Origin: Promethearchaeota archaeon
GTDB taxonomy: Archaea > Asgardarchaeota > Lokiarchaeia > Sigyniarchaeales > SOKP01
Reading direction: 5' to 3'
DNA: 34,221 bases
NCBI GenBank assembly: GCA_016840085.1
Contig: JAEOTA010000011.1
Coordinates: forward strand, 1-34,221
Shown here: one piece after another, positions 1,548 to 27,491 of the stretch
Position numbering within the stretch: position 1 is the stretch's first letter
How the letters are laid out: each line of letters opens with the position of its first letter
Program-made: the position numbers and the translations under genes
Notes under the pieces: model-generated
What the model was told of the DNA's origin: nothing
The model's database searches: none
Seen by the model: only the letters and a program-made list of their open reading frames with translations

Positions 1548-1623
1548 AATTTTTGTGAAGCGGTTATATCGCACTAAAAAAGTATAAAGTTTATACTTTC
1601 ATGAACCGAGTTTTCACGAAATT
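1548..1623. repeat. Nested inverted repeat carrying the dispersed GTGAA-CGGTT / AACCG-TTTCACGAA motif
   Basis: Perfect inner IR AAAGTATAAA (1579-1588) / TTTATACTTT (1590-1599). Imperfect outer arms AATTTTTGTGAAGCGGTT (1548-1565) and AACCGAGTTTTCACGAAATT (1604-1623). Lies between convergent genes. Confidence 0.7.
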
Positions 1624-1714
1624 AGAGTCTGATTTCAATGAAAATTCTATTGAAAAGACGAAATAAATTCAGAAATTTATACCAGTAAAAAATCCCTTTC
1701 TTTCAGATTGTCTA

Positions 1715-3271
1715 TCAGTTGATTTGTCGTTCACAAGCAAAAACATCTAAATCATCCGGGATATCTATAAAATCTAATTTAACAATTGATAAAATGTTTT
1801 CAGAAGAAATTTCGCAGTTAACAATCCTAACACCTCTTTCAAAAGTAGTAGAAATTCTATGTGGGGGAAATGTTTTAATAATGTAATGAGAGTTATCCTG
1901 TGTTGTAGATATCCACCAATAAGGATCTGGATAAGCGTTTACAATCCCAGATTCAGTAGCACTTTCCATTCTTCTAGAAAAGGTTTGAGGCAATATAAGC
2001 TTAAGATCTTGAAAGAAAATTAGTTTAGAATCGTCTTCATCATCATTGATCATTTCTGATTGAAATTCAACCTCTTCTATATTTCTCGTACCAAATCTAT
2101 CTTTTAAGTGGAGATTATTTGGATTATGAACCTTAACATTATAAGTAAATTTATCTAAAATGGTTGTCTGTGTCATTTGTTCCATATTGTCTCTGAGATT
2201 ATTTATCCTATTTTCGAATTTCCAATCTATTTCATCATTCAAGAACTGGTTTAGCTCAAAATCCATTATGATCTTAATAGTAGACATTAAAATATTTACA
2301 TCTTCAACTAATCCGGGTGATCCTAGATAAGTTTCTATACTATGTCCAATTTCATTTCTTCGTGAATATATTCGCCTAAAATTATTTAATAAAGCTTGAA
2401 CATCTTCATTTTCTCGTAAATCTGCTGTTAACCGAATATTATAATAACTCTTAAATCGTTGTTTAATGGTTCTCATTATTTTTCTATCTGAAGGAAATGT
2501 AGAATCTTTAAAAGAATTCAACTGATTAAGTTTTTCACCGTCATAATCATGGTTTCTAATAAATTGTGCAAAATGTGTCCTTAGATCCTCATGTATACTA
2601 TCCTGCTCATTTGGGCTAGCAACTGCAGCACCCCATAATTGAGAAAATCCATTAGCCTCAGCCCAATTATGTATTATTCCCTCAAATGTTGCGAAACTAA
2701 AGAAATAATCTATTACACCGGAATTACCTATTTTACTAGTAGCATAATTATACATAATTGCTCTTAACTTATCTGTGGGATTGTATTGGAGTAATTTGGT
2801 GAGAAGCGGAAGAACTAAATCATATTGATTATATCTTACTTGAAAATTACTTCCACTATCGCAATTTATTTCAATTATTCTCTGAAAAGAAAGTTTAGAA
2901 TCCTTATTTTCTTCGCTATAGCTCTCAACATGGAAAAAAACTCTAGCTTTTAAATTAAGGTTGACAAGAAAACGCAAAAGATATAAAAAATCCATTATCC
3001 ACCTACATAAACTACGATATAATTCAACATTCTCTTCAAAAGTCTCCTTCGGTATGATTCCAACGCCTAGCCATAGGGAATGGGTGTCTGTACCAAACCC
3101 ATTATGAAGTTGAGTAACTGGTTCGGGTTCTATATTCTGAATATATATTATGTCACCCTTATACCAAGACCTTCCCTTAATGAATAGATCTTGTGGAATC
3201 TCATAAAGAGCATTAATTCCATAATAGTTACTTTTATCAATTAGATGTATCAAGAAAAAAGATTCTGTCAT
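1715..3271 (-). CDS. HEPN-domain protein (ApeA-like), putative RNase effector with C-terminal extension
   Basis: 518 aa. FFSFATFEGI helix with conserved Glu and RxxxxH motif RNEIGH (nt 2342-2359). Confidence 0.6.
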   Translation of the reverse strand: MTESFFLIHLIDKSNYYGINALYEIPQDLFIKGRSWYKGDIIYIQNIEPEPVTQLHNGFGTDTHSLWLGVGIIPKETFEENVELYRSLCRWIMDFLYLLRFLVNLNLKARVFFHVESYSEENKDSKLSFQRIIEINCDSGSNFQVRYNQYDLVLPLLTKLLQYNPTDKLRAIMYNYATSKIGNSGVIDYFFSFATFEGIIHNWAEANGFSQLWGAAVASPNEQDSIHEDLRTHFAQFIRNHDYDGEKLNQLNSFKDSTFPSDRKIMRTIKQRFKSYYNIRLTADLRENEDVQALLNNFRRIYSRRNEIGHSIETYLGSPGLVEDVNILMSTIKIIMDFELNQFLNDEIDWKFENRINNLRDNMEQMTQTTILDKFTYNVKVHNPNNLHLKDRFGTRNIEEVEFQSEMINDDEDDSKLIFFQDLKLILPQTFSRRMESATESGIVNAYPDPYWWISTTQDNSHYIIKTFPPHRISTTFERGVRIVNCEISSENILSIVKLDFIDIPDDLDVFACERQIN

Positions 3272-3354
3272 AGGTTATAGATTTCCTTTTTTAGTTAAAT
3301 ATGTTATGAGGGGTCTCGATTCTATCCTTTAAAACCATATAAGACTTCCATTTT

Positions 3355-4101
3355 TTATTTTTTCAATAATCTTTCAATAAACTCTTCGCTCCACATATTC
3401 ATACGACTAACTCGGTATCGTTTTCCTTCTAAAACTCCTCGAGTAAAATCCCGCAATTGATTTGCGCCATCGGAATTCCAGCCATTTTGAAGAGCCCAGA
3501 TTCTCATATTTTCAGGATTTAATTGTATTCTATTTCGATGTAATATTCTTAAAAGTTGAATAGCACTTTCTCTATCAGATGAATGGGTTAAACCTGTAGA
3601 TAAATTGATTGTGTTTGTTAATGCGACCAAAGCCCTTTCTAATCTAGGATCAAGCTCTAATAACTCTACATGTTCTTGAGCATCTCCAATTATTTCTGGA
3701 TTCCATGTTTTTATCCATACATCTCTTTCCTTATCTATCCAAGGAACAACAACAATCGCTTTTGCTCTATTTAAATCATTAAGATTATCCATCATTCTTG
3801 AAGTGGGATATAATGATAATACGATATCCTCTACCCAATTAATTATTTCAAGACGCTCAGTTTTTAAAGTAAATGTAATGTTATTCCAAGTACCATAATT
3901 ATCTTTATTTAGCTTTCTAATTGTAGTTTGATCTAATAAATTACTTAGTTGCTCTAAATGTTCCTTTGTAGGAAGATGAAGTATTACAGCATTATGCGAA
4001 AGAGAAACACATAATTCAAGAATTTTTTTAAAACCATTAACGAGAGCATTCCTATCTGAACTTGCTGAATTAGTTATATATCTTTCTGGCATTAAAATCA
4101 A
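3355..4101 (-). CDS. Hypothetical protein with C-terminal DUF1889/YoaC-like domain
   Basis: 248 aa. C-terminal LERALVALTNTINLSTGLTHSSDRESA...WALQNGWNSDGANQL resembles DUF1889. Confidence 0.5.
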   Translation of the reverse strand: MILMPERYITNSASSDRNALVNGFKKILELCVSLSHNAVILHLPTKEHLEQLSNLLDQTTIRKLNKDNYGTWNNITFTLKTERLEIINWVEDIVLSLYPTSRMMDNLNDLNRAKAIVVVPWIDKERDVWIKTWNPEIIGDAQEHVELLELDPRLERALVALTNTINLSTGLTHSSDRESAIQLLRILHRNRIQLNPENMRIWALQNGWNSDGANQLRDFTRGVLEGKRYRVSRMNMWSEEFIERLLKK

Positions 4102-4596
4102 TTTCCTTAATAATTAATATTAATACTTTTGTCTAATCTTAAAATAAGAACAATAGAAATATATTTTTTTCCCTATTCTCTCCTAATATAATTATTCAAA
4201 ATTAAAAGAAATAAATATTAAAAAACTATTTGGTGCGGTTAATGTTCTTTAAATATTCATATCAAAGATATTATCACAATAAATATGAGAAGAAATTACA
4301 ATAGTCACAATAAAGTATTTTAATGTTTGTTTAAAACATAGCAATCTACTCTCCTTAGAAGTTGAAGGCTGTAAAATTTAATATTAAAATAATCTTGATC
4401 AGGATAAATTATTATATATAACTTATCAAAATAATTTAAAATAGTTTATAATAAAATAACTTAATTTACATCCATAAATTATATTGAAATGATTATCAAA
4501 AGAGGTTTCATGCTTATTTTGTGCATTGATTCAAAATTGCTCCGATTATGATAAAAATTGAAGAAGCTTTTTATATTTCTCAATAATGTTCTGTGT

Positions 4597-7560
4597 CTAA
4601 TGCTCACATTTTTTTATTAATTTGTATAAGATAGTTATTCTATGTACAATATTTGAGTCATTTGGTCCATACATCTTTAATATATTTAATGAATTTCGAT
4701 AATAATTTTTCGCTTTCTTCTTTTTTCCTTTTAAAAAGTAAAAATCCCCTAAAAGTTTATAATTTGAAGCGACTCCTAAATGATTGTTATTCTTAATGTT
4801 AATATTAAGACTTTCATTTATATTTTCATAAGCTTTAGTGAATTCTTGTCTTTTTAAATAAATACTCCCCAAAGTATTTAAAGAAGTTTCTAAATTATTT
4901 ATAATATTTAATTCTCTATAAAATTTTACAGCTTTCTCAAGATATATAATTGCCCTATTATCTTTATTTACCCTTAAGCTTAAATATCCCAAATTATTAT
5001 AAACATCCGCTTTAATGTCATTTTTAATCTCTTTATTAAATTTTAAAATTTTTTTGAAATATAATAAAGCTAAATTCAATTTTTCTAATTTGAAAAAAAT
5101 TTTAGCTTTCTCTATAAAGATTTTACCAATATCATTAATATTTTGTGACTTACACAAAAGTTCAATTAGAATGTTATAATTATTTAAAGTTTTTTTAAAA
5201 TTTTCTTGTATTATTGAAATCTTAATCATTATTTTAAGAGACTCTATCTGATCCTCTATGTTATTTAATTTTTGATATACATTAAAAGCACTGTTAAAGT
5301 AAGAATAAGAGGTCTGATATTTCTTTGTATCAAAGAAAATAATTCCTAAATTTTTATTTATAGAAGCTATTGCGTATACTAATTCATTTTTTTGAGCTAT
5401 TTCTAATGCTTTCATTAAAGAGCTTATTGCATCATCAAATTTTATCCATCTTGCTAATATAACTCCAATTTGGTGCAGGCAATTTGTTTCAATCTCTTTA
5501 TATCCTCTTTTTTGGGCAATTTTTAAAGAAGCCTCATAATACTTAACAGCAGTTTGATAATCCTTTTTTAGGTCATATATCTGCCCTTTTTTGCTTAAAC
5601 AAGATGAAATTTCTCTAGCATTATTAGAATCCTTCAATATTTGAAATGTTTTTTCAATTATTTTTAATGCTGTATCAAATTCTTCATTTTGTGCATAAAC
5701 AAGGGCAATATTTGTCAAATTAGATACATTTTCGGTGCGTTCTAACTTTTCAGAAATTTTCAAAGATTGCTTGAAATAATTCATTGCCTTATCCTTATTT
5801 CCTTCTCTGACAAAAAGACTTCCAAGATTATTATATCCATTAGCAATACTCGGAAAATCATTAATCTTTTTTGCACTCTTAAGATTATTTTTCCAAATTA
5901 ATTTTGCTAACTTTAAGTTACCTTGATCATAATAAATTTTTCCAATTTTGTTTTTGCTAGCTATTTCTCCTTTAATGTCAAATATAATTTTAAATATATC
6001 TTTAGCTTTGTTGTAATACTCTATAGCTTTTCCAATATCACCTTTCTGATGAAAAATGCTTCCCATATTATCGATGATAGAAGCCATTCCTATCATATTA
6101 CCTATATCTTCCGTCAAAAGCAAGGATTCCTCGTAAAGTTTAAAAGCTTCCTCTAAGTAACCTTGACTATTATAAGCTCCTGCTAAATTATTCAAAACAA
6201 TTGATTTTAATAATTTACTATTTACAATTGAATTTATAAATTTGAGGGACTTTTTATAAAAATAGATAGACTTTTTATAATTTCCTTTAACATAATAGAT
6301 CCAACCAAAGCTATTATAAACATTAATTATTCCTTCTAAATATTTTAATTTTATATAAATTTTTACCGCTTTTTTATAATTAATCATAGATTCGATAAAA
6401 TTATACAGACTCATATAAGACTTTCCGATATTATTATAAGCTTCTGCTTTATAGAATTTTTCATCATTTTCTATTGATTTTTCAAGCATCCTTTCTGAAC
6501 ATCTTAAAGATTCATTAAATCTATTGAATCTATAATAGATCTTATTTGTAAAGCCACATTTCAATATTGTATTAGGTGTACTTATTTTTTCATTTAACCA
6601 TTGTGTTGGTGTAATTGAAAACGGTTCACTTTTTAATTTATACTTAAAATCAAAAAATTTTTTGATTAAAATTGAGGTATTAATATTTATTTTATATATA
6701 TTAGTTAATGGACTAGCTTTTTTGATGTTTACTAAAATTATATCAATAGCGTCTAATCTGTTCGATAATTCAACATCTGTCTGCTCTATTTTGTAAATTT
6801 GTTCAACTCCGTACTCTTTATCTGTATGATTTATCCAATAAATATTTTCTAATTTCTTTAGTGTCTTAATAGTAGGAATAATATCAAAATCATCTCCTCC
6901 TGAATATCCAATTACTACAAGGGAACGATGTTCGGTAATTTTCTCTAACAAAGGTTTTTTATAATACTCAACAGAAAGAATGTTAGTTCCCTTTTTATTA
7001 GAGCCTAATGCTTGTAAAGTAGAGATTAATGAAGCTTTAACATTTTGCGAAGTTATGATGTTTTTAACTGATCCATGGATTTTATAGACAGGATATTTTG
7101 ATTCTTCATTTAATTTGTATGGATTACTAAATTTTTCAAAATCTTCTTCAGTAATAACTGGAATAACAGATTCTTTTGGAATTTTCAATTTTAGTAAAGC
7201 ATATTCAATTAATGAATCAAAATTTGTTGTGATCACAAAATTCCCCTTTTTAATCATCTGAGCTAGGAAAATGTGTTGCAAATTAGGTTCATTACATTCC
7301 CCATAATAATCTAAAATCTTGAGATTTGGATCTAAAAGATCTCGATATAGTTCAACTAATTCTTCAAATCTAAGTCCATTAATATTTAAAATTTTTTGAA
7401 TTTCAGATTTTAAACATGAAAATTCAATAATTGCTTTCATCATATCATTAGCAGTTCCTAGATTTGAAGGTGATTCGACAGAACATCCTGCTCCTACGAG
7501 AAAAGTCAACTTTTTAGATCTTTTTAATAAATCAAGAAAATTAAATCGCAATATTTTCAT
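4597..7560 (-). CDS. SIR2-like (SIR2_2) domain + tetratricopeptide repeat protein
   Basis: LVGAGCS, ITTNFD, YKIHGS and VIGYSGGDDFDI are SIR2-like motifs, followed by about 600 aa of TPRs (e.g. AEAYNNIG, VLNNLAGAYNSQG, GYNNLGSLF). ATG at 7560 has an AGGAGAG RBS and is preferred over the GTG at 7605. Confidence 0.9.
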   Translation of the reverse strand: MKILRFNFLDLLKRSKKLTFLVGAGCSVESPSNLGTANDMMKAIIEFSCLKSEIQKILNINGLRFEELVELYRDLLDPNLKILDYYGECNEPNLQHIFLAQMIKKGNFVITTNFDSLIEYALLKLKIPKESVIPVITEEDFEKFSNPYKLNEESKYPVYKIHGSVKNIITSQNVKASLISTLQALGSNKKGTNILSVEYYKKPLLEKITEHRSLVVIGYSGGDDFDIIPTIKTLKKLENIYWINHTDKEYGVEQIYKIEQTDVELSNRLDAIDIILVNIKKASPLTNIYKININTSILIKKFFDFKYKLKSEPFSITPTQWLNEKISTPNTILKCGFTNKIYYRFNRFNESLRCSERMLEKSIENDEKFYKAEAYNNIGKSYMSLYNFIESMINYKKAVKIYIKLKYLEGIINVYNSFGWIYYVKGNYKKSIYFYKKSLKFINSIVNSKLLKSIVLNNLAGAYNSQGYLEEAFKLYEESLLLTEDIGNMIGMASIIDNMGSIFHQKGDIGKAIEYYNKAKDIFKIIFDIKGEIASKNKIGKIYYDQGNLKLAKLIWKNNLKSAKKINDFPSIANGYNNLGSLFVREGNKDKAMNYFKQSLKISEKLERTENVSNLTNIALVYAQNEEFDTALKIIEKTFQILKDSNNAREISSCLSKKGQIYDLKKDYQTAVKYYEASLKIAQKRGYKEIETNCLHQIGVILARWIKFDDAISSLMKALEIAQKNELVYAIASINKNLGIIFFDTKKYQTSYSYFNSAFNVYQKLNNIEDQIESLKIMIKISIIQENFKKTLNNYNILIELLCKSQNINDIGKIFIEKAKIFFKLEKLNLALLYFKKILKFNKEIKNDIKADVYNNLGYLSLRVNKDNRAIIYLEKAVKFYRELNIINNLETSLNTLGSIYLKRQEFTKAYENINESLNINIKNNNHLGVASNYKLLGDFYFLKGKKKKAKNYYRNSLNILKMYGPNDSNIVHRITILYKLIKKCEH

Positions 7561-7610
7561 ACAATTTTCTCTCCTTCGAATTTTTATAAACCTTTTAGTG
7601 CTCACTTTAG

Positions 7611-9350
7611 TTATAATTCATTCAATTCAGATAATAAATTCTCTGCCTTCTTAATCCATTTTTTTAAATGTCGTTGTTCTGCTATCTGCTTGCCTATTTT
7701 AATGTTTTTTATGGCTTTTTCGATTTCTCCTTTTTCCTTGTAACAAATTCCTAATCTTATATGAGTCATATGATTAAAATATACAAAAGTATTAGCATCA
7801 ATTTCCTCTTCTAATCTTTTTAATATACTTTCATAAATATTTATTGCTTCCTGGAATTTACCTTCTATCTGAAAAATTTCTGCTTTAGTATCGGTATAAT
7901 CTAATATTTCTAATTCCCCTTGTGTAATTTTAATTACCTCATCAATAATGCGATGTGCATTTTCGAAATCTCCTTTCTTAGCAAGAATCAGACTCTTAAT
8001 GTTGAATGGAGTAAGGGATGCTTCAGATAACTCATTAATGCCGTATTCATCTAATAATTCAAGTGCCTCGTCCAGTCGTTCTAACTCATAGTAAAAGACC
8101 ATTTTATAATATACAGCTTGGCGGAAAAAATCATATTTCATTGTAAATTTGGTGTGTTTGAGTAATTCTTCAACTTCGGTTAAAGCATCAGATGTCTTTC
8201 CTTCAGAATCTAGAAGATTTACTTTGTGGAGTGTTTTAGCAATTTCTTGGTGTTCAATTACATTAACACTGATATATTCCTTAATAATCCAATATATCGC
8301 ATCTAATAGTAGAAAGACCTTTATTGAATTTTCCTTCGTGTATAGTTCTTTAATATACTTACCGTGTCCAACAGCGTGTCTGTTTGGAAAATCTACATTC
8401 ACTTTTTGAAACCAATCCTTAAAAGTTTCTAGCATAGGTCCATCAATGAGAAATGCAAAGGTAAAATAAAGGACACTTTGGAACTCGAAAGTTGACAAAC
8501 TAATATTCTCTAAAACTTTCTTAACATCCTTGGTTTTGGATTCTTGACGAAATCTCATTTCAGTAGTAACCGAATACCCAAAATCAGTTATTATCCCCTC
8601 AAAATGAGGAATTAGAGTGCTGATTGTAGTTATATATCGTTGGTTTCTATGACAAAAGAATGCTTCTTCAATGATTTCCTTCCTATCATTAAACTCCTTG
8701 AGTTCCCACCAATTTTCCATTAAACCCATTAAAAATTCTTCAGAACAATGTGTCATAATTATTTCTCTTGCTTCAGTAATATTATCCTCTTTTAAAGCTC
8801 TAATTATTTTATTTAATGGTGTTGGAATTAAAGCTGGAATGATCCATAATCCATTTTTCATTAGGAGATCATTATGATGTGTAATAAATTTAGTGATAGT
8901 TTCTCTTATCTGCTTTTTCAACAACTTAATTAATCCTTCCTTAGCTATTTTTGAATATTTTTCTTTTTCTGAATCTTTTATAGGATTATTTGGTGTGAAG
9001 TCAAACATATAATCATATGACGCACCTTCTGAATAACTACCATTGAATTGTAAGTATATAAACGCTAATCTTTCACCATTTTCACTCGGCAATTCTACAT
9101 CAGCAATATCTTCATATTCCTCTGGAAAAATAGGATCTCCTTTATTCTTTCCCTCTTTAAGGTTTAATTTCATCATTGCGGCAAATCCAAATTCATTATT
9201 AAACTTAACAATTGGATTTGAATTTTTAGGGAAGGTAATGAGACATTTTGTGAACCTAAAATCCTTTTCAATCAACCCACCCGCCTTTCTCTTGTCTAAT
9301 TCGGGTTTAATCCAGTTATTATGTATTTGATCATAATTTAAGCCCATCAT
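7611..9350 (-). CDS. HEPN-like domain + C-terminal TPR protein
   Basis: 579 aa. IEEAFFCH..LIPHFEGII and PNRHAVGHG (RxxxxH, nt 8364-8381) mark the HEPN-like region. C-terminal ~200 aa are TPR-like (DTKAEIFQIEGKFQEAINIYE, HIRLGICYKEKGEIEKAI). Confidence 0.7.
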   Translation of the reverse strand: MMGLNYDQIHNNWIKPELDKRKAGGLIEKDFRFTKCLITFPKNSNPIVKFNNEFGFAAMMKLNLKEGKNKGDPIFPEEYEDIADVELPSENGERLAFIYLQFNGSYSEGASYDYMFDFTPNNPIKDSEKEKYSKIAKEGLIKLLKKQIRETITKFITHHNDLLMKNGLWIIPALIPTPLNKIIRALKEDNITEAREIIMTHCSEEFLMGLMENWWELKEFNDRKEIIEEAFFCHRNQRYITTISTLIPHFEGIITDFGYSVTTEMRFRQESKTKDVKKVLENISLSTFEFQSVLYFTFAFLIDGPMLETFKDWFQKVNVDFPNRHAVGHGKYIKELYTKENSIKVFLLLDAIYWIIKEYISVNVIEHQEIAKTLHKVNLLDSEGKTSDALTEVEELLKHTKFTMKYDFFRQAVYYKMVFYYELERLDEALELLDEYGINELSEASLTPFNIKSLILAKKGDFENAHRIIDEVIKITQGELEILDYTDTKAEIFQIEGKFQEAINIYESILKRLEEEIDANTFVYFNHMTHIRLGICYKEKGEIEKAIKNIKIGKQIAEQRHLKKWIKKAENLLSELNEL

Positions 9351-9367
9351 ATAACATCATTTACCTT

Positions 9368-10399: not shown

Positions 10400-10453
10400 T
10401 AAATAATATTTCCTACGATTTATTTTTTTACATTATTGATGAAAAAAAAATTG

Positions 10454-10641
10454 TGTCCAATAGTGGACATTTTAGATAATCCATTTTTTCAGTATGTATA
10501 AAATCAGAGGAAATTGAAAATTAACAATGCTGTATTTTTATCCAATATGGATAATTTGGGATCTTTTTGAATTTAAATGATTTTATAATAAGAGAAAATA
10601 TGAAAATGACAATACTTATTTTTAAGTATCAATACTTATTT
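10454..10641. promoter_or_regulatory. Cluster of short palindromes and direct repeats, candidate operator sites
   Basis: TGTCCA-atag-TGGACA (10454-10469), TTATCCA-ata-TGGATAA (10538-10554), and CAATACTTATTT twice (10610-10621, 10630-10641), in the divergent intergenic region. Confidence 0.35.
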
Positions 10642-10700
10642 GCGGGATTTTTTCTATTGAATAATCAAATAATATTAGAAAAATAGGAAAAAGTAAGGAT

Positions 10701-10839
10701 AACGGTTAGTGTTTCTTATCCATAGAATTTTGCATAACTCTCTAATAAAATTAGAATTTTATCTTCTGGAGAAGAAATTTGAAGTAGACTAAATCTATTA
10801 AAAATAATAGAACTGTTGAATATACGTGAAATAACTGAA
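10701..10839. repeat. Dispersed motif copy: AACGGTTA ... ATACGTGAAATAACTGAA
   Basis: 10822-10839 matches 15869-15886 at 17 of 18 positions. AACGGTTA at 10701 mirrors the arrangement at 15739. Confidence 0.6.
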
Positions 10840-10890
10840 AGTTAAAATAAATTTAGCTTCAAATTAGTCTTAAAATTATAGAATAAATTT

Positions 10891-11068
10891 TTAATTAATT
10901 ACTCCTTTTTGAGTAATATTTTTCGCCAATTCTTCAACTTGATTTGATAGAGAAAGATTGAAAAGGATTCACTTTTTATGCTCATTTCTTTTTAAGATTT
11001 TTATTAGGAATTTTCTCAATCTCAGCAATAGTAAGATTTGAGTTATAAATCTCAAAATTTTCAATCAA
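10891..11068 (-). pseudogene. Degraded PIN-domain (VapC-like) gene remnant
   Basis: Joining frames on the minus strand gives ENFEIYNSNLTIAEIEKIPNKNLKK/EMSIKSESFSI/SLSNQVEELAKNITQKGVI, resembling the middle of a PIN toxin. Interrupted by frameshifts and a stop. Confidence 0.4.
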
Positions 11069-11335
11069 TACATTCAAATTTGATATAATTTATCCTATTA
11101 GTTAATATTTAAATTCAAAAAGTTCTATTAAACAGTTAGACATTTTTATAATAAATCTAAAAATCTAAGAAACGTTTTATTTACCATTACAATGTACTTA
11201 GGAGCAGTAGGAATTATAATAATTGTTAATATAAACAATCCATCAAAACTGGTGGAAAATGTAATTATATTTATGATGTAGAATTTTCTAATAAATTACT
11301 TTAATTTAATTTAGGAAGAGAAGGGCAGTAAAATA

Positions 11336-14251
11336 ATGAGCGAAGAAGATCTATTTGATAAAATTATTGATGAATTCAATTTACAAAATATCATTTTAGA
11401 TGACAATAAACAAGAAATTATGAATGAATACATCCCTCTTTTAAAAAAAAAAGCCGAGAGTTTTAGTGATTTCAATTTTAAAATGATATTGACCGTAATG
11501 CTTCTATTATTAAATAGAATGAAAGAAATTAGATTTGAAAGCAATCCTCCAGTTGTGGTTTTAACAGCATCAGTATTATGGCATAATGCAATAAACAGAC
11601 CTAACGATAGAGAATATATTTTACAAGATGAAATTGAAAAAAGATTTGATGCTAGTATAAATGCAGAAAGATTTTTAAGAAGAGAACTAGGAATCAATAA
11701 AAGAGTTTATTCAGATCTAGAAAGTTTAATAGAAGATTTAAACAAAGGATCAAACATAATACTCGGAAACTTATTCACATCTCAAAATTTTAGAAAATGG
11801 GATGAAATTAGAAATTTTTTAATTGAAAAAGTTTTTAAAAGAGAAAATTTTAATCAATGCGCATTAGAGGCAGCTATATTTTTGTATTTAAATAGGGAAA
11901 GAACTTACACGAAATCCGAGATATGGAATGCTACTAAACATGACATTTTACTTGAAGGTGATACTCCAGAAGCCACTTTTAATTCTGATTTAAGTAGATA
12001 TACAATAAACTCTGATGTCAAAAGTAAGAGAAAACCATTATTGTTCGAAATAGTAAACCCAGATGAACAACCACATAAAATTGTTATATTAGATAATATT
12101 TTTGAAGAAATTAATAGATTTTTAATGGATATTGCTGAATTAATTAAACCATTTGTTGAATTTTCAAAATTACTAGAAGAAACTGATGAAAATGTAAGAC
12201 AGATATGTAATATTATTAGGGAAAGTGAAAGAGAATATATTAATGCATATTATAATAATTTTTTTCAAGTTAGAATCCCTTTAGAAAAAAATATATCACC
12301 TTTTTTTAGAATTTTAACTATTAATAAAATTTGTAAAAGTAATAGAAGAAATAATCCTTTTAATAGTCTAGCTGATTTTATAAATTATGTAGATGAATTT
12401 AAGGATAAATTAAAGGATGATAGTTTTCCAGATAATTTTATTGATGATATTCTTGAACTTAATGACATTGAACCCATTATTTATGAAGGAAAGGAGTATC
12501 ATTTCAATTTGGATTTTGTAAGAAAATTTGTTAAGGTCACCGAATCAGTTGATAGACAATTCCAAAATTATGGTGGTTTTAATTTTTTTAGACACTTTAT
12601 AATTTATTATACACCTCAAGGAATTAAGTTAAAGGAGGCTCATTCTAATTTATGGAATATGATATTTAATCCCATTATTAAATTATTGAATTTAGAGAGT
12701 GAAGAATATTTCGTCGATCACGGCAGATTTTTCATGCCGAAAGGTGTTTATGAAGATGACAGGACATGGGGTGCATTATTAAAGTCAAATATTGGAAACT
12801 TGGAAATAGAAGAACACCGAACAAGATCACTTCAATTATATATTGGTATAAATCCTAAAGGTTTGGAAATTGGAACAAATTTAGGAAGTAATGCAGATAT
12901 TGCATTAAAAACATTTTTAGAAGAGAATGCCATTGAGAATAAAGATAAATTAATTAATCTTTTTAAAGAATTTAAAGTAAAATATCAAGATAATATAAGA
13001 ATAATAAGTTCAGAGAGGGATGTGGAGAAGTTAATCAATCTAGACCAATCTTTAGAGGATGATTCTTTTAAAGAAGAGATTTTCGATTACTTTAAAAGGC
13101 AATTTTCTATAATTTATGGTGAATTTCAAGGAGATCAAACACAATTTAATTATATAGTTAAAGATCTTTTCGAAGTATATAAAATTTTAATTGGAGAGTC
13201 GGAGATCGAACCACTTCCTCCAATTTCTCCATTAAAAGAATTAATTACAAATAATGTTCAAACTACTAATTTTCTGTCAGCGAAAGATGATATTGTTAAA
13301 TATCTTAATAAAGAATTTGTTGGAATAGATTTAAACAATATTGTTGAAAAAATATTAAATCTTTTAGAGTCTGAAAAAAATATTATACTTTATGGAGCAC
13401 CAGGTACTGGTAAGACAGTCATTTTGGAAGATATTTTTAAAATACTTAAAGAAAAATTTGATGTTATTGAGGACATTCTATCAACTACAGCAACTTCTGA
13501 TTGGACTTTATTTGAGACTATAGGTGGACTTGTTCCAGAAGCAAAGAAATTGAATTTTAGACCTGGTCTATTTCTCAGATGCTTTAGAAAACCAGGAACT
13601 AAAATAAGTAATAATTGGTTAATAGTTGATGAATTAAATCGAGCAAATATAGATAAAGCATTTGGTTATTTTTTCACTTCATTAAGTGATGAGTCTGTAG
13701 AACTTCCATTTAAAAATCTTGATGACCAAACAATAAGACTTGTACCAATAAAAAAATATATGCATGAGGGAAAAAACATAGATGAAATATTTGATCTTAT
13801 CAATTCCGGTACTCGTGGGTTTGATACATATTATATATCACCTAATTGGAGAATGGGTGGAACTATAAATTCTTCTGACAAAGCTTCATTACACCAACTT
13901 TCACACGCATTTATTCGAAGATTTGGTTTTGTCAACATTCCATCTCCAGATATCGAAAAATTTATGAAAGATTTTAAAAATTTTGAGTCATCAGAAAAAA
14001 AACAAAATGATTTAAAAAAAGTATGGGAGATAATTCAAGAAATTTATGAAATTGGACCTGCAATTATAATAGATATGGATAAACTTCTAAAATCAGATAA
14101 TTTAGATATATTTGACGCCTTTGAGGCTTATATTTTACCCCAAATTGACACACTTCCTGATGATATCATTAACAATCTAATGGAAAAATTAATTAAGGAA
14201 TTTGGAGAAGAAAGAGGAAAGAGATTTTCTGAATATAAAGTAATACTTTAA
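11336..14251 (+). CDS. mcrB: McrB-family AAA+ GTPase with long multidomain N-terminus including a HARE-HTH
   Basis: Walker A LYGAPGTGKT, Walker B WLIVDELNRANIDKAFG, McrB NxxD signature GTINSSD, and AFIRRF. ALEAAIFLYL..YTKSEIW..LEGDTPEATFNSDL matches HARE-HTH. Confidence 0.88.
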   Translation: MSEEDLFDKIIDEFNLQNIILDDNKQEIMNEYIPLLKKKAESFSDFNFKMILTVMLLLLNRMKEIRFESNPPVVVLTASVLWHNAINRPNDREYILQDEIEKRFDASINAERFLRRELGINKRVYSDLESLIEDLNKGSNIILGNLFTSQNFRKWDEIRNFLIEKVFKRENFNQCALEAAIFLYLNRERTYTKSEIWNATKHDILLEGDTPEATFNSDLSRYTINSDVKSKRKPLLFEIVNPDEQPHKIVILDNIFEEINRFLMDIAELIKPFVEFSKLLEETDENVRQICNIIRESEREYINAYYNNFFQVRIPLEKNISPFFRILTINKICKSNRRNNPFNSLADFINYVDEFKDKLKDDSFPDNFIDDILELNDIEPIIYEGKEYHFNLDFVRKFVKVTESVDRQFQNYGGFNFFRHFIIYYTPQGIKLKEAHSNLWNMIFNPIIKLLNLESEEYFVDHGRFFMPKGVYEDDRTWGALLKSNIGNLEIEEHRTRSLQLYIGINPKGLEIGTNLGSNADIALKTFLEENAIENKDKLINLFKEFKVKYQDNIRIISSERDVEKLINLDQSLEDDSFKEEIFDYFKRQFSIIYGEFQGDQTQFNYIVKDLFEVYKILIGESEIEPLPPISPLKELITNNVQTTNFLSAKDDIVKYLNKEFVGIDLNNIVEKILNLLESEKNIILYGAPGTGKTVILEDIFKILKEKFDVIEDILSTTATSDWTLFETIGGLVPEAKKLNFRPGLFLRCFRKPGTKISNNWLIVDELNRANIDKAFGYFFTSLSDESVELPFKNLDDQTIRLVPIKKYMHEGKNIDEIFDLINSGTRGFDTYYISPNWRMGGTINSSDKASLHQLSHAFIRRFGFVNIPSPDIEKFMKDFKNFESSEKKQNDLKKVWEIIQEIYEIGPAIIIDMDKLLKSDNLDIFDAFEAYILPQIDTLPDDIINNLMEKLIKEFGEERGKRFSEYKVIL

Positions 14252-14276
14252 CTTTTTTTATTAATTTAATTATGGT

Positions 14277-15701
14277 TTGGTTATCAATTTGACTGAAATT
14301 TCAAAATATGATAGGTTGTTATGGAGCCCAAATAAAGAACAACTAAGAAAATTAGGATTTAAACTTGAGACTGAATTAGAATGGTTTGAAGAAGATACAT
14401 TGGGATATTTGATTACTTATTTCCAAACAGGCTATTTTGTTTTTATAAATGAAATTTTCGATAAGATTAAAATTGATATAGATAATATACCAACGAGAAC
14501 AAAGGATGAATTTTTTCAGTTATCCTTTTTGAAATTTATATCTCAACAAATTTCTGAATTTAAAAAATTCTTATATAATTGGATTCAAAAGATTAAAATA
14601 ACGTCAGTTGATAACCCTTTAATATTGAATAATCAAATTGAAGGTAAAATATTATGGAAGGATACATTTAGAGAAAGAAACTATTTACCTTATCCCAAAA
14701 GCATAAAATTTGTATGTACTTCATATAAGACCAATTTTGATTCATTAGAAAATATAATTTTAAAATCTTTTCTAAATTTTTTAAAAAATATTATAGAAAC
14801 TCACCTAAATTATCTTAAAGTAGAAAAAGAAAAAAAAAAAGAAGATTGGAGATTCCATGCTATCACTATTTACAATCTTTTGAAAAGAATATTAACTAAT
14901 TATTATATGCGAGAAATTACTTTAAAGAAAAATGAATGGAAAAATAAATATTCCCTAAATAGAACACTTAGATCTTGCCACAAAAATAATTTATTAATTT
15001 TATTAATTGCTAACCTCTACATCGATTTGAGATCCTCAAAAAATAGAAATTTACTTGAAAAATTTTTAATGAATAATATAATTAAGCCTAACCAAGATAA
15101 AACTGCTGAATTATTTGTTTTATTTACAATTATTCAAAAATTATCTTCCCAAAAAGAGGGATATGAAGAGTATTTATTGATTAAACCAAGAAAGGATATT
15201 GTGAAACAGTTCTCGCAACCTGTTTATACAAAAATTTATGATGATGATATTAAAATCAATCTATATTATCAAATCACGCCTAATTGGATCTCCATTAAAT
15301 ATCCTGATGTTTCCTTATTTAGTATAACTTTAAAACAATACAAACTAAAGAATATTGAAATGCACCCTGATATCACAATCGAGGTTTCAAAAGGGCATAA
15401 AAAAAAGATTATTTTTTTGGAAGTAAAAAATTCTAAGAAATCTGATTATCTACGTCAAGGTTTGATGCAAATATGTAATTATTACGAATTTTTAAAAATT
15501 ACTGAAGAAAGTATAATCGAAAATACCTCAGATTTCAAAAAAGAAGGAATATTAATTTCTAAAGGTATTCCTGATGGATGGGAAATAAATACTAATAATA
15601 TGTGGACTAATAATCAAATAAAAATTAAGTATTTAGACTTTCAAGGGCTCAAATCTCTAGATAATCGAATTTTTGTGGCAAAATTATTACATATTTCATA
15701 A
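14277..15701 (+). CDS. McrC-like PD-(D/E)xK nuclease
   Basis: Starts 25 bp after McrB. IEGKILWKDT and FDSLENIILK are McrC/DUF2357-like. C-terminal HPDITIE...IFLEVKNS...GLMQICNY is a nuclease motif. Confidence 0.78.
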   Translation: MVINLTEISKYDRLLWSPNKEQLRKLGFKLETELEWFEEDTLGYLITYFQTGYFVFINEIFDKIKIDIDNIPTRTKDEFFQLSFLKFISQQISEFKKFLYNWIQKIKITSVDNPLILNNQIEGKILWKDTFRERNYLPYPKSIKFVCTSYKTNFDSLENIILKSFLNFLKNIIETHLNYLKVEKEKKKEDWRFHAITIYNLLKRILTNYYMREITLKKNEWKNKYSLNRTLRSCHKNNLLILLIANLYIDLRSSKNRNLLEKFLMNNIIKPNQDKTAELFVLFTIIQKLSSQKEGYEEYLLIKPRKDIVKQFSQPVYTKIYDDDIKINLYYQITPNWISIKYPDVSLFSITLKQYKLKNIEMHPDITIEVSKGHKKKIIFLEVKNSKKSDYLRQGLMQICNYYEFLKITEESIIENTSDFKKEGILISKGIPDGWEINTNNMWTNNQIKIKYLDFQGLKSLDNRIFVAKLLHIS

Positions 15702-15734
15702 ACTCATTTGATTATATAGTTATAAAGATTAATA

Positions 15735-15886
15735 GTGAAACGGTTACAGAACAAAAATTTAACCTCAGAGTGTCTATTTATTAAAAATTAAGAGCTGAGT
15801 TTTTCATAAATTTATAATAAGACCATTACAGTTCAGGAGATAACAACAGTTAGATTAATTTTGTGGAAATACGTGAAATAACCGAA
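15735..15886. repeat. Dispersed motif copy bounded by GTGAAACGGTTA and CGTGAAATAACCG (MITE-like or recombination-site-like)
   Basis: 15735-15746 is identical to 21243-21254. 15872-15884 is the exact reverse complement of 21249-21261. CGGTTA/TAACCG inverted ends span 15741-15884. Confidence 0.65.
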
Positions 15887-16172
15887 TATTATATTTAAAT
15901 GATTACAAAATTATTATAAAACTCCACTTAATTTATTAATTCTTATTGTAAATAAATCTATAAACAGTCTGAATTCATTTACTTAGTATATTAAAATATA
16001 AGTTTAATATTCATATAATACACTCATTTTTGATTTAATTCTAAGTATTAAACTTCTGAAGATAATTATTTTCATTTGTTTGGAGCTAAATTAAAAAACA
16101 ATTATTTTTACCTAAATGTACATTATAATTAAGAAATTTTAAGATAAAATTCAATGAGTTGATATTTGTTTA

Positions 16173-17309
16173 ATGTCAAGAAGTATTATAAAAACTCCTT
16201 TTAAAGAATTACCTGAGGCTCTTGTTGAGGATATGTTAATTCAATGCGATGGAATAAGCAAAAAATTGTCAACGACGTTTCAAAATTTATTAGATCTTAA
16301 AAAAAGAGCAAGGAGGATATTAAAGGATAAAGAATTACTAAAAAATGATTCTAAGATTACATTAACACCATCTCACCCAACAACTTGTGGAGTAGACGGA
16401 GCTTTTGCTATAGAGAAACTGCTCTCTACAGATATAGTTGGTATTGCTGGTGTAGCGGTTGAAGGATTAGCTCCTCCAACTGAAGTTCGATATTGGCCAG
16501 TACCATACCATAACTCTAATGTTCTAACTTTAGCACATAATGATACAACAGGTTTAATTTCAAGAGCAATAATGATGTGCATGGAATTAATTTTGGCGGG
16601 AAATGCACCTCACGATGTAGTGTTTATTGATGGTTCATTAATAACGCCTTTTATAAAATTAAATCAAGCTTTAAATCCTAATATTAAGCCAGTGAAGGAA
16701 ATAATGGATGTATTATTTAGAAAATTAAAACCTGCATTGAATTCGTATGAAAAAATACTTAATTCTAAAAAAACTGACCAAATATTCACTGGTGTGCCAA
16801 AATATACTACTATAAATCAAATTTCGCAAGATATTCTGAATTTAAAGGGATTTGAAGATCGTGGATTACTTTCCTTCATTTTAAAAGCAGGTGAATTCGT
16901 AGGACCGTTTAAAATCAAAAAACCAATATCAAAATGGAGTCTAGAGTACTTACCATCTGATACAATAGAACAATTCAAAAGGATCTTAAATGCATTAAAT
17001 GAGATTAATATGGTTTATTATAGACCTTCTGAATTTTTTCCTGTATTAAGAGTGGAAATTGCTCCATCAATAGCAACGAATAATTATAGGTTAGCAATGT
17101 TATTTGAATCTATAAAATTACAATGTGGTGCTCCCGGGATTATAGAACCTTATCCATTATATTTCGCAGATAGAATAGTTAAACATCTAAGAAAAGCCTT
17201 ACCAGCAATTAGAAGAACAGCGACACAGGATATGACATTAAAGTGGAAAGGAGCAGAAGGAAATATTTATTTTGCCTTACATGGATATCGTACTGATTGG
17301 GGGAAATAA
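16173..17309 (+). CDS. nurA: NurA-family nuclease
   Basis: CGVDGA and VVFIDGSL acidic motifs and the C-terminal EPYPLYFADRIVK motif. Directly upstream of HerA. Confidence 0.85.
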   Translation: MSRSIIKTPFKELPEALVEDMLIQCDGISKKLSTTFQNLLDLKKRARRILKDKELLKNDSKITLTPSHPTTCGVDGAFAIEKLLSTDIVGIAGVAVEGLAPPTEVRYWPVPYHNSNVLTLAHNDTTGLISRAIMMCMELILAGNAPHDVVFIDGSLITPFIKLNQALNPNIKPVKEIMDVLFRKLKPALNSYEKILNSKKTDQIFTGVPKYTTINQISQDILNLKGFEDRGLLSFILKAGEFVGPFKIKKPISKWSLEYLPSDTIEQFKRILNALNEINMVYYRPSEFFPVLRVEIAPSIATNNYRLAMLFESIKLQCGAPGIIEPYPLYFADRIVKHLRKALPAIRRTATQDMTLKWKGAEGNIYFALHGYRTDWGK

Positions 17310-17320
17310 GGTGATTAAAA

Positions 17321-19057
17321 ATTAGTAATGTTGATGAGAAACTAGACAAGGCAGAAAGAATAGGAGTAATTGGTTCTCCCTCTTCGACAGGAGAATTAAC
17401 GATTGATATTATTGGAACTGCGGTTAATAAAAAATTAGTGGGTAAGTTAAGCATCTTTAATTTTATGCAAGATGGAATGGCTCATTATGCTTTAGGACAA
17501 ATATCTGAAATCGTGATGCGAAATATTTGGGCTCAAGATCCAACCATGAGAGGTATAATTAGACAAAAAGGTCGAGTTGACCCAATCACAGAAAGACAAG
17601 ATCTTCATATTGCTAAAATGATGGTGAGTTCTGTTTTTGCAAGCAATGATCAACATCTTGTTCCTAGCATACTAGGTACAGTACCAGCAACAGGAACTTC
17701 CATTAAATTATTTGATGAAGAAATAATGGAGAGTTTATTAGATGATTACCAAGAAGAGTTATTTTATTTAGGGAAAGCTTATGGTTCAAACATAAAACTT
17801 CCAATGTGGTTTAAACATTTCGACATTGGAAAGGATGGTATTGGTGAAGCTTATCATATTGGTATTTTTGGTAAAACAGGTTCTGGTAAATCTGTTCTAG
17901 CTAAAATGATTGTGAGTGGTTATGCGAAACATAAAAATATGTCGATTTTTATTTTGGATCCTCAAGGTGAATTCTCTCTTGAGTTTTCTTCTAATGAAAA
18001 ATTAAAACAAATAATTGAGAAAGAAATAGGTAGAAAAATCAAAATCTATACAATACAAAATTTAGTGCTTGATTATTCCGATAGTTTATTCAAAGATCTT
18101 TTGATAGCCTCAGGTTTCTTTAATAGATTAAAAATCTATTATGATGAACATTGGCCTCGTTTTGTAGATGAAATCATTCGAATTCTTAATACTAAGACCA
18201 AGATTTTTGATGGATTTAAACCTTGGGAATATTATAAGAAAGAAGCATTTAAAATAATATGGAATTTAATCCCTGATGACCAATTCTTACAAAGAGTTAT
18301 CTTTACTAAAGAACCAAGAGAAAGAGTCAAGAGTGTATGGCTATCACTAAATGAAGACCTTATGTATGATTTATGGGCAGGAATTACAAATTTGTTTAGC
18401 TATAAAAGAGCTAAAGAAAGTGTTAGATTAACAACTTTATTTGAAAAAGCATCAGAAGGAAATCCTTTGGTTATAATAGATTTATCCTCTAGAGAAAAAC
18501 CTAAAGATATTATATGGAATGATGACATTCAATTAATTGCGATTCAACAATTTCTTAGTAAAATTACGATACAAGCAGAAAATAAATTTAAACAAGGGGG
18601 CAATGTAAACTCTTTAGTTGTAGTTGATGAGGCACATAGATTAGCTCCAAGAGGAAGAATAGAAAATGAGAATATAACCAGAATTAGAACAACCTTTATT
18701 GATGCAATTAGGACCACTCGAAAATTTGGCCTTGGATGGATGTTTATTAGTCAGACGCTTTCAAGTATTCATCATGAAATTATCAATCAAATAAGGGTCT
18801 TTACTTTTGGGTTTGGTCTTGGTTGGGGTACTGAATTACGCGCCCTTCAGGAAATTATAGGAGGAAATAGAGAAGCAATAAGGTTATATCAAAACTTTAA
18901 AGATCCTCAAAGTGGTTTAGGACAAAGAGAATACCCTTTTATGACAATTGGTCCGATTTCTCCTCTTTCATTTTCTGGCACTCCACTTTTTTTCAATGCA
19001 CTTAATTATCCCGAGGAATTTCTACAAATTAATTTTGCTAAGGATGAACAAACTTGA
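17321..19057 (+). CDS. herA: HerA/FtsK-family ATPase (DUF87) with HAS-barrel, probable ATT start
   Basis: HIGIFGKTGSGKS, ILDPQGEF, VVVDEAHRLAP and TRKFGLGWMFISQ motifs. The frame is open upstream of 17438 to ATT 17321 (ISNVDEKLDKAERIGVIGSPSSTGELTIDII, first HAS-barrel strand), with RBS AGGTGA at 17309-17314. Confidence 0.9.
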   Translation: MSNVDEKLDKAERIGVIGSPSSTGELTIDIIGTAVNKKLVGKLSIFNFMQDGMAHYALGQISEIVMRNIWAQDPTMRGIIRQKGRVDPITERQDLHIAKMMVSSVFASNDQHLVPSILGTVPATGTSIKLFDEEIMESLLDDYQEELFYLGKAYGSNIKLPMWFKHFDIGKDGIGEAYHIGIFGKTGSGKSVLAKMIVSGYAKHKNMSIFILDPQGEFSLEFSSNEKLKQIIEKEIGRKIKIYTIQNLVLDYSDSLFKDLLIASGFFNRLKIYYDEHWPRFVDEIIRILNTKTKIFDGFKPWEYYKKEAFKIIWNLIPDDQFLQRVIFTKEPRERVKSVWLSLNEDLMYDLWAGITNLFSYKRAKESVRLTTLFEKASEGNPLVIIDLSSREKPKDIIWNDDIQLIAIQQFLSKITIQAENKFKQGGNVNSLVVVDEAHRLAPRGRIENENITRIRTTFIDAIRTTRKFGLGWMFISQTLSSIHHEIINQIRVFTFGFGLGWGTELRALQEIIGGNREAIRLYQNFKDPQSGLGQREYPFMTIGPISPLSFSGTPLFFNALNYPEEFLQINFAKDEQT

Positions 19058-19130
19058 GATAGTGAATAAAGTTATTCTTAAAAATAACTACTTATTAAAC
19101 TTAATTAATTCAATTTTATTGGGATAAAAT

Positions 19131-20048
19131 ATGGGTGTTGTAATTAGTTTTATTAATTTGAAAGGAGGCGTTGGTAAAACCACATGTTGTGCTAATGTTG
19201 CGGGTGAATTAGCGAGAGAGAATCGAAAAGTATTAGTAATTGATGCGGATCCACAAGCGAATATCTCAACTTTATTAATGGGAATAAAGAAATATCATGA
19301 AAAATTCAATCCAAACAATCAATCTGATGATTATTATAAAGATAGTATATATCAAATCTTTTTGGATGCTATGGAAGAAAATGAAGAAAATAAGAAGTTT
19401 AATTTTGACACAGCAATAATTAAATCAGTAGTTAGTAAAACAGTTCAAGGAACGGAAACCCATCCATTAACTCATCTTGATTTACTCCCAGCTACGCATC
19501 ATTTAATGCAATTAGAACAGAAGATTGTAAATTATGTTAGATCTAGATTTGCTATTCTTGAAAGATTTATAAACCTGATAAAAAATGAATATGATTTTAT
19601 ATTGATTGATTGTCCTCCCAATATTTATACTACAACTCATAACTCCTTATATGCCTCAGATTATTACATAATTCCTACAATACCAGATTACCTTTCGATT
19701 AGTGGATTTCCTCTCCTTATTAATTCTCTTAATCGGACTATTGATATAAAAAAGGAAGAAAAAAATGAACGGGTAATTTTAGCAGGTGTTTTAGTTAATT
19801 TAATGGATATGAGAATTAATGTTCATAAAGACGGATTAGAATCAATTAAACGAGTATTGAGATATTTCCGACAAAATGGATTAGTTGATGAAAATGCTGT
19901 TGTATTTGAGAGTGTTATAACTAATAAAGTAGATGTAAAAAATGCTTCTGGAAATCATTTACCAGTTTGTGTTGATAAACCTCGGTCAAATTCTACTATG
20001 GAATATATGAAATTGTGTAAAGAAATTTTAGAAAGGATTTCAAAATAA
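19131..20048 (+). CDS. parA: ParA/Soj-family ATPase
   Basis: Deviant Walker A NLKGGVGKTT, VLVIDADPQAN and YDFILIDCPP. Confidence 0.92.
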   Translation: MGVVISFINLKGGVGKTTCCANVAGELARENRKVLVIDADPQANISTLLMGIKKYHEKFNPNNQSDDYYKDSIYQIFLDAMEENEENKKFNFDTAIIKSVVSKTVQGTETHPLTHLDLLPATHHLMQLEQKIVNYVRSRFAILERFINLIKNEYDFILIDCPPNIYTTTHNSLYASDYYIIPTIPDYLSISGFPLLINSLNRTIDIKKEEKNERVILAGVLVNLMDMRINVHKDGLESIKRVLRYFRQNGLVDENAVVFESVITNKVDVKNASGNHLPVCVDKPRSNSTMEYMKLCKEILERISK

Positions 20049-20062
20049 CGGAGGTTTTTACT

Positions 20063-20671
20063 ATAGAAAAATCTATTTTCTCATTATTGAATGAAATCAA
20101 ATTAAAAATCCAGTCTAATCTTAACAATTATGATCTTAAACAAATCAATGAATTATTAATAAATTTAGATCAAGAAATAGAGTTATGTGTAAAAATAAAT
20201 GAAGATCTATTAAGATTTTTTAATAAAAAATCAAATTTTAGAACAATAGCTAATCTAAAAGGTTTCTCTACTAACAAACTAAACTATAAAATAAAAAGTA
20301 CTAAACGAGTCGATATAGAAGAAGAATTGGCAAAAATCTCTACGACAAGAAATATCAGCGGTGAAAAATTAAGAACTTTATTAGGGAAACCAAAAATAGA
20401 AGCACAGCAACCTGTTAAGAAAAAAGCACCAAAAAAACCTAGCTCCATAAAAGTTAATGATCAAACTTCGCGATGGTTAAGTCTAATCCCTACCCAGTTG
20501 AAAGATGAGTTAAACGATTTAAACAGATATCCTGATGCTCGAACTTTAAAACAAGCAGCCTACTCTATCCTTAAATCTAATGAAAAAAGGTTTAGAATAC
20601 GTGAGAAAATTATTAATATAATATTAGAACGTATTTCTGAGGAAAAAGCAATAGCAAATTTAGGAAGGTAA
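20063..20671 (+). CDS. Basic hypothetical protein, candidate ParA partner with possible C-terminal HeH/Rho-N-like DNA-binding module
   Basis: Follows parA closely. RBS GGAGGT (20050-20055) sits 7 nt before an in-frame ATA at 20063 (track start TTG 20087). Lys/Pro linker precedes TLKQAAYSIL...REKIINIILERI. Confidence 0.5.
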   Translation: MEKSIFSLLNEIKLKIQSNLNNYDLKQINELLINLDQEIELCVKINEDLLRFFNKKSNFRTIANLKGFSTNKLNYKIKSTKRVDIEEELAKISTTRNISGEKLRTLLGKPKIEAQQPVKKKAPKKPSSIKVNDQTSRWLSLIPTQLKDELNDLNRYPDARTLKQAAYSILKSNEKRFRIREKIINIILERISEEKAIANLGR

Positions 20672-20676
20672 TTATA

Positions 20677-21144
20677 TTGTTCTTTATTGAAAAGGAACCA
20701 AAAATTACTGAAAAAGAAATTCAGAATTTATATCAAACTCACCCATATTTAATTGAAAAGAAATTTCTTAATCAGGAAGTAGTTCCACAATACTCTTTAC
20801 CCTCAGGATTCGCAGATATTGTAGTTTTTTTAGAAAATGAAATCGTAGTAATTGAATTAAAAGTCGAGATTCTTGAAAATCGGCATTTACTACAGTTATA
20901 TGGATATTTAGAAGATATGGAAAAAAAATTCAAGAATATTAAAAGAATTAGAGGAATATTAATTGGTAAGGAGCCTGATAAAGAACTATATTTGATGATT
21001 AAAAATTTCTCATTCGAAATAAAAATACTGGTTTTGAATAAAGAGATTATAACAAAGGTTAAAATTTGTAATAGCTGTAGATTAGCTAATGATTTAAAGA
21101 ATGATTATTGTATTTATTGCTGTAATAAATCATTTTTGTTATGA
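20677..21144 (+). CDS. NucS/DUF91-like PD-(D/E)xK endonuclease with C-terminal Zn ribbon
   Basis: TEKEIQNLYQTHPYLIE, GFADIV, VVIELKV, LLQLYGY and RGILIG motifs, then CNSC...CIYC. Confidence 0.8.
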   Translation: MFFIEKEPKITEKEIQNLYQTHPYLIEKKFLNQEVVPQYSLPSGFADIVVFLENEIVVIELKVEILENRHLLQLYGYLEDMEKKFKNIKRIRGILIGKEPDKELYLMIKNFSFEIKILVLNKEIITKVKICNSCRLANDLKNDYCIYCCNKSFLL

Positions 21145-21239
21145 TTTAACTTAGAATATTTGAAAGATTTTACAAAAAAAAAATCTTAAGTTATATAAAT
21201 TAAATAAGTTAGAATGAATCTATAGCTAAAATTTATAAC

Positions 21240-21263
21240 TTCGTGAAACGGTTATTTCACGAA
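21240..21263. repeat. Perfect palindrome TTCGTGAAA-CGGTTA-TTTCACGAA (compact form of the dispersed motif)
   Basis: 9-bp perfect inverted arms with a 6-nt spacer, read directly from the sequence. Confidence 0.8.
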
Positions 21264-26437: not shown

Positions 26438-26485
26438 AATATATTACCTCCTAATTTTCATTATTAATTTTTTCTAACAATTACT

Positions 26486-27490: not shown

Positions 27491-27491
27491 A

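Follow-up and report, generated by a model that had tools for sequence, protein, structure and literature searches.

In the pdif system of Acinetobacter, modules lie between dif-like sites whose 6-bp spacers alternate in orientation. These modules carry toxin–antitoxin genes or no open reading frame (ORF), are served in trans by the host XerC/XerD, are exchanged with the crossover at the site, and, where the spacers of two sites match, are inverted or excised in pairs (PMC13141974, PMC12907356). The R64 shufflon shows nested inversions by Rci at asymmetric sfx sites, which have a conserved core and one conserved arm, the other arm being variable; symmetric sfx sites also permit excision (PMC11852207). 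Archaeal dif is intergenic, with inverted arms around a 6-bp spacer, and is unlinked to the gene for its recombinase XerA (PMC2958812, PMC8371274); its layout is 11-6-11, and TaXerA still recombines sites with mutated arms (PMC8371274). Integrons have a unique receiving site that is regenerated as a cassette enters (PMC9668308). Here we analyze a recurring palindromic motif in a 34,221-nucleotide stretch of contig JAEOTA010000011.1 (the window), which belongs to a Promethearchaeota (Lokiarchaeia) genome of 4.68 Mb and 29.5% GC (the source genome, G000) and resembles each of these systems in part. Sequence comparison with 53 other genomes of the genus and with 57 metagenome contigs makes it probable that the motif is a family of tyrosine-recombinase sites, with the full site taken by a homomeric recombinase acting in trans, most likely the chromosomal XerA.

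The original prediction listed four motif loci, a to d, at the edges of gene modules, and all four are present as written there. A single unit underlies them, composed of arm A (TCGTGAAA), a 6-bp core and a second arm. Copies with both arms are full sites and copies with one good arm are half-sites. Half-sites were scored by a position weight matrix (PWM), from which the 57 metagenome contigs were kept out as an independent check. Comparison genomes, contigs and extracted loci carry G-, C- and L-numbers, respectively. The sites of the window are as follows.

21240-21263, no strand: P, the complete palindromic site; 9-bp arm, core CGGTTA at 21249-21254, 9-bp inverted arm.
15732-15755, + strand: half-site b1, PWM score 25.1; good arm with 1-2 changes, + core, poor arm; opens the spacer module.
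15870-15893, + strand: half-site b2, PWM score 31.0; good arm, inverted core, poor arm.
10823-10846, + strand: half-site c2, PWM score 26.2; good arm, inverted core with 1 change.
10694-10717, + strand: decayed half-site c1, PWM score 0.2; core intact at 10703, arm gone; retained for its core and position alone.
1552-1575, + strand: degenerate half-site d1, after Nmad2, PWM score 12.4; homologous to the site G041:C4:56202.
1598-1621, no strand: d2, an arm-like palindrome with a 5-bp centre; the sole such match in the genome and possibly a dead site.

Locus (a), first described as a compact palindrome, was borne out as a full arm-core-arm site, and P is the sole window site with both arms; b1, b2, c2 and d1 have the left arm only. 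Every site lies between ORFs. The core reads CGGTTA in d1 and b1 and is reverse complemented in c2 and b2, so that, as read at each site, the cores alternate along c1, c2, b1, b2 and P. The two 12/13-mers noticed at first occur exactly twice each in the 4.68-Mb genome, every copy in the window. Allowing up to one mismatch gives three window matches per motif against 0.06 and 0.18 expected, a count that 0 of 100 shuffles reached, and the motif lies far above expectation from composition. An Rfam search of the window gave no match, and generic repeat finding on it returned AT-rich noise only. Loci b and c had been read as directly oriented, similarly spaced copies around McrBC. In b, two half-sites stand 138 bp apart from core to core with arms in the same direction and cores inverted; in c the right-hand half-site stands and the left-hand one has lost its arm, the spacing is 129 bp, and the DNA between is unrelated to that in b (52% vs 54% shuffled). 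Locus (d), taken to be one motif pair, resolves into half-site d1, whose homology to the perfect G041 site runs on for ~48 further bp, and the separate palindrome d2.

The same half-sites form longer arrays in relatives. Mapping of 16 regions revealed up to ~30 half-sites per array, positioned at gene-module edges, with toxin–antitoxin, defence-like and membrane genes as cargo. Seven arrays in seven genomes each contain exactly one P, and all 71 half-sites follow one polarity, on the + strand to the left of P and on the − strand to its right. The polarity held in 28 of 29 cases among the independent metagenome contigs, and none of the 57 was a mixed-strand contig without P. Logos of the half-sites show that the core and one arm are conserved and that the second arm is not. 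What the original prediction overlooked is the status of locus (a), which forms the only centre of a polar array and belongs to a set of ~9 full sites in the source genome. P is the array centre and presumably also the insertion point.

Core orientation alternates across 79 of the 111 inter-site modules, and across 107 of 120 junctions in the metagenome contigs, for which an alternating pair had served as the query. Of the 111 modules, 28 are ORF-less spacers; they measure 128-134 bp, are always of one type, and in many cases are unrelated in sequence to that of b. When 122-142 bp was allowed in the metagenome contigs, only spacers of 128-133 bp were returned (mode 133), and they occur on both sides of P. 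The 150-bp element b recurs in 18 of the 53 relatives and on three further contigs of the source genome. Fixed length and copies 96-99% identical in differing contexts are features of a miniature inverted-repeat transposable element (MITE) or insertion sequence (IS) scar, an option raised in the original prediction; P would then be its empty or excised footprint. This option is largely refuted and we consider it very improbable. The arms are direct rather than terminal inverted repeats, no target-site duplication exceeds that in permuted controls, many spacers of equal length are unrelated, and single half-sites bound gene modules. Nor is strict polarity expected from dispersed insertion, and the arm also forms 3-11 stand-alone palindromes per genome.

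Comparison of arrays argues for movement of modules between sites. Homology between arrays ends within 40 bp of a site 25 of 112 times, against 3.6% expected. Homologous module pairs share their polarity toward P in 40/40 cases among the genomes and 91/92 in the metagenome, even across opposite arms of the array. An antiporter module is 88-90% identical from core to core in three genomes, with different neighbours in each, and 18 of 30 near-identical spacer pairs (95-99%) sit in unrelated flanks, their identity stopping 0-6 bp after the core. Loci L248 and L279 show 99.6% identity over the 2,539 bp that lead to the core; from there on, one has P and the other a half-site and other DNA; the pair looks as expected for the states before and after an event at P. 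Alongside site anatomy and polarity, the alignments demonstrate exchange of modules with breakpoints at the core and alternative P and half-site alleles. The suggestion that the motif comprises pdif-like sites that assemble cassettes is supported by polarity, module exchange and breakpoints at the core, the last found where gain and loss of modules were compared among relatives.

In the mechanism that we propose, a half-site would retain the core and the arm on the side away from P, and the products of exchange between P and a half-site would always be a full site plus a half-site whose good arm faces outward. Directly oriented cores would allow modules to be excised or inserted at P, and inverted cores would allow DNA to be flipped to the other array arm, shifting P. 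Half-sites on opposite arms would invert nested segments, as in a shufflon. This geometry would explain why there is only one P, why polarity is mirrored about it and why modules keep one polarity toward it. The empty spacer of 128-134 bp may be a filler, with cargo travelling as a two-module unit; alternation favours such paired movement, as in pdif (PMC13141974), and the empty spacer would thereby have a function. That its length is fixed points to a constraint of looping or geometry. Circular intermediates and the role of the spacer are presumed, and none of the 57 metagenome loci is a circular contig. Integrative mobile elements exploiting Xer (IMEX), such as CTX phage, make use of the host Xer. 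Because the arms here are direct, a CTX-type duplex hairpin is impossible for the paired inverted sites.

The pdif features given above all recur in these arrays, host Xer in trans as the presumed arrangement and inversion and pairwise excision as part of the proposal. However, a pdif site has both its C and its D arm, spacers vary from site to site, and there is no centre. In the present arrays, an internal site has a single good arm, one core is common to these sites, both sides point to a single symmetric full site, an empty module of fixed length recurs, and the host is archaeal, presumably with one homomeric recombinase. The shufflon shares the one-armed sites and nested inversions, but Rci is encoded alongside, the core is 7 bp, and the segments are parts of one gene with nothing gained; in these arrays gain and loss affect entire genes across tens of kb, the symmetric site is natural, and no recombinase is adjacent. 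The full sites resemble archaeal dif in layout, whereas dif is single copy and the present sites number 7-14 per genome, are dispersed, differ in core and have a conserved arm of only 8-9 bp. As in integrons, there is a unique receiving site regenerated on entry; unlike them, the arrays have no IntI beside an attI, no attC hairpin, and two arms. We found no description of Xer, dif, integrons or cassette arrays of this kind in the Asgard and Lokiarchaeia literature, of which our coverage was incomplete, and the structures described in papers on archaeal integrons and Asgard elements differ from these arrays. The arrays are probably a new form of Xer-exploiting module system and possibly a separate class. 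Tentatively, and with somewhat more doubt than belief, we propose a distinct archaeal gene-capture platform ranking with integrons. In it, Lokiarchaeia would have made a XerA site into a set of core-coded landing pads, one of them a symmetric hub that changes position, takes up defence modules and shuffles them on two arms. It would do so by means of one-armed sites and a spacer of fixed length, without an integrase dedicated to the task.

Full sites extend well beyond P. The source genome contains 5 exact and 8 near-exact arm-N6-arm palindromes, plus one with N7, and all cores differ. The five exact copies compare with 0.0085 expected per spacer length; other lengths gave 0-1, and only 6 bp is enriched. 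All 53 other genomes of the genus carry 3-11 exact full sites (reversed control, ~0), and exact sites are patchy outside the family. The single-contig genomes G006 and G022 have 10 and 7 full sites dispersed round the chromosome; being multiple and dispersed, these differ from the single dif known from published work. Unbiased retrieval of the region downstream of rpoM gave a full site in 26 of 31 loci. The site usually lies 52 bp after the gene, which is convergent with rps27e when no cargo stands between them. Its core is identical in 16 loci; the others have a replacement core, which in some is one characteristic of another locus. G033 and G039 have chimeric junctions, in which the rpoM locus on the left meets, exactly at a full site, the right-hand flank of another full site next to a tRNA gene. 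For G033, the change of flank coincides with the core edge, and the core comes from the partner site. As judged from these junctions, chromosomal crossover has taken place at full sites.

A palindrome with a variable centre, dispersed round single-contig chromosomes, could also be the operator of a dimeric regulator or the site of a chromosome-organising protein, at which islands gather by other means. The position of the rpoM site, fixed at 52 bp, and the often scarless cargo beside it fit such a role. Yet 45 of 133 sites lie between convergent gene ends, adjacent genes have no biased direction, and the rpoM site stands between convergent genes in cargo-free genomes. Half-sites conserve the core rather than the second arm, polarity flips at P, and breakpoints and chimeric junctions fall on the core. 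We therefore regard the operator explanation as improbable and retain a family of recombination sites.

No half-site arrays were found for other full-site cores in the source genome; a second core has a few half-sites there and in relatives. At the ends of L093 and L096 and at L095:8244-8306 (G003, G018, G005), a second-core half-site lies 41 bp from a full site of yet another core, and insertions at these loci seem to import new full sites. In G014 (L102:7287-8458), a gene of 229 amino acids (aa) is positioned between two inward-facing half-sites in an attL/attR-like manner, where relatives have a full site. Full-palindrome matches in IMG/VR showed no link to the source genome, and both of those examined are flanked by terminase genes in phages of the HK97 type. 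L123 and L124 have a longer palindrome with identical inner arms between terS and terL of such phages, which is probably convergent. Viral 15-mer matches were single and unrelated. An outward primer at the end of an excising Fylgjavirus provirus of Ca. L. ossiferum B36 ends in arm sequence (bioRxiv 10.64898/2026.02.13.705702); this provirus has a terminal inverted repeat, and its link to the present site family could not be established.

Given recombination at these sites, elimination makes XerA quite likely to be the catalyst. The window contains no recombinase, as originally stated, no tyrosine recombinase was found in array regions or metagenome loci, and no serine resolvase was found in G000, G002 or G046. 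XerA is the only PF00589 match in five array carriers that are 95-100% complete (G002, G040, G004, G024 and G046). In the source genome, which additionally holds one broken tyrosine recombinase gene, XerA (C49:156715-157662) adjoins orc1/cdc6 and scores 243.6 with the NCBIfam XerA model (cut-off 220); its neighbours at 82-84% identity come from Promethearchaeota/Hermodarchaeota metagenome-assembled genomes (MAGs). With the IntI model it scores 98.8 against a cut-off of 265. This result bears on the integron-like option of the original prediction. On an integron reading, each array would be a cluster of attC sites lacking an integron integrase (CALIN), and its sites would act as single-strand hairpins. 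Integrons and CALINs are enriched among Asgard genomes (PMC9668308), and cargo of toxin–antitoxin and defence genes would suit them. However, b folds at z +0.4/+0.2, and most spacers fold no better than shuffles, only 4 of 29 reaching z <= -2. The host enzyme is XerA, not IntI, the cargo genes lack a common orientation, and the array is two-armed. We give this option hardly any credence.

Several observations weigh against XerA-driven recombination as we propose it. The case for XerA as catalyst proceeds by elimination because no array contains a recombinase gene. XerA occurs in nearly all genomes of the genus, and arrays of this core in a subset; G079 has a XerA that is 51% identical, yet no such palindromes. 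In G048, 92% identical to the source genome, an unrelated ORF replaces xerA by cdc6 (L148), and half-sites are kept despite this loss, although the genome has no full site of this core. The assemblies of G003 and G050 are without the entire xerA locus. The absence of linked recombinase genes and the uneven match between XerA and arrays would favour a cassette system as proposed with another catalyst that escaped PF00589, be it a tyrosine recombinase (diverged or carried by an element) or an accessory factor. We consider this alternative rather unlikely, given the several 95-100% complete carriers in which XerA is the sole tyrosine recombinase and the full sites in 53/53 genomes, which fit a core-encoded binder.

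Further points against our proposal concern geometry and sampling. Alternation is absent from 32 of the 111 junctions, and L256 and L281 join one arm to opposite cores; core homology is therefore not always obeyed, and these cases, together with the core swaps, suggest that exchange sometimes takes place at a single core edge and with limited homology. Most cargo next to the rpoM site has no half-site scars. In G051:C34 (L067, 13166 onward), the half-site arm points to ribosomal-protein genes and the contig has no P, and in the window the DNA to the right of P has no half-sites. The NurA-HerA block described below ends away from any site. Finally, the genomes are related MAGs with 3-9% contamination, and counts are therefore not independent.

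If the proposal is right, it would account for the assembly of defence and toxin–antitoxin islands in the archaea most closely related to eukaryotes. It would also bear on the open question of what archaeal XerA does without FtsK and how it handles many sites. With one 315-aa protein and 24-bp sites, the system is small enough for cheap testing. Its symmetric hub, one-armed partners and natural core variants are a candidate set of orthogonal recombination sites.

The gene calls made earlier for the window (McrB, McrC-like, NurA, HerA, ParA, NucS-like and Nmad2) are supported. Its modules are as follows.

15747-15878, + strand: ORF-less spacer module of 132 bp; family in 18/53 genus genomes, plus source-genome contigs C17, C56 and C58.
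15885-21248, + strand: cargo module adjoining P, with NurA, HerA, a ParA-like protein, a 194-aa protein and a NucS-like protein; composite.
10838-15740, + strand: cargo module between c2 and b1, with McrB-like 11336-14251 and McrC-like 14277-15701.

The sites did not move all gene blocks of the window; the NurA-HerA block (16003-19036) has ends of its own. This block is 90-91% identical in G051:C5, G044:C43 and G038:C37, where it has the same ends and no flanking sites. Its ends being off-site, the module adjoining P is composite, and the block by this comparison travelled by another route. Directly beyond b2, ~100 bp match the beginnings of modules in G050 and C17. Flanking sites suggest that the McrB/McrC stretch is a module, of which no second copy was found in the homology comparison.

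An intergenic block of 240 bp at 10450-10689 contains the palindrome TGTCCA-N4-TGGACA at 10454-10469 and is probably a site for a regulator; it is 89-93% identical to G000:C80 and G051:C42. The block stops 14 bp short of the c1 core, which may account for loss of the c1 arm. A 23-bp intergenic repeat at 1624-1646 has 7 copies in the source genome, one of which adjoins a second-core half-site (C49:4508). To the right of P, where half-sites are absent, the operon at 24339-29891 encodes an archaea-specific SMC-related protein, a 334-aa ORF, an AAA ATPase and a BrxP/PAPS-reductase-like Fe-S protein, a possible defence system. Further right, at 30429-31247, a leucine-rich repeat (LRR) gene is in two pieces (177 and 84 aa), and its homologues in G041 and G045 are 319-349 aa long.

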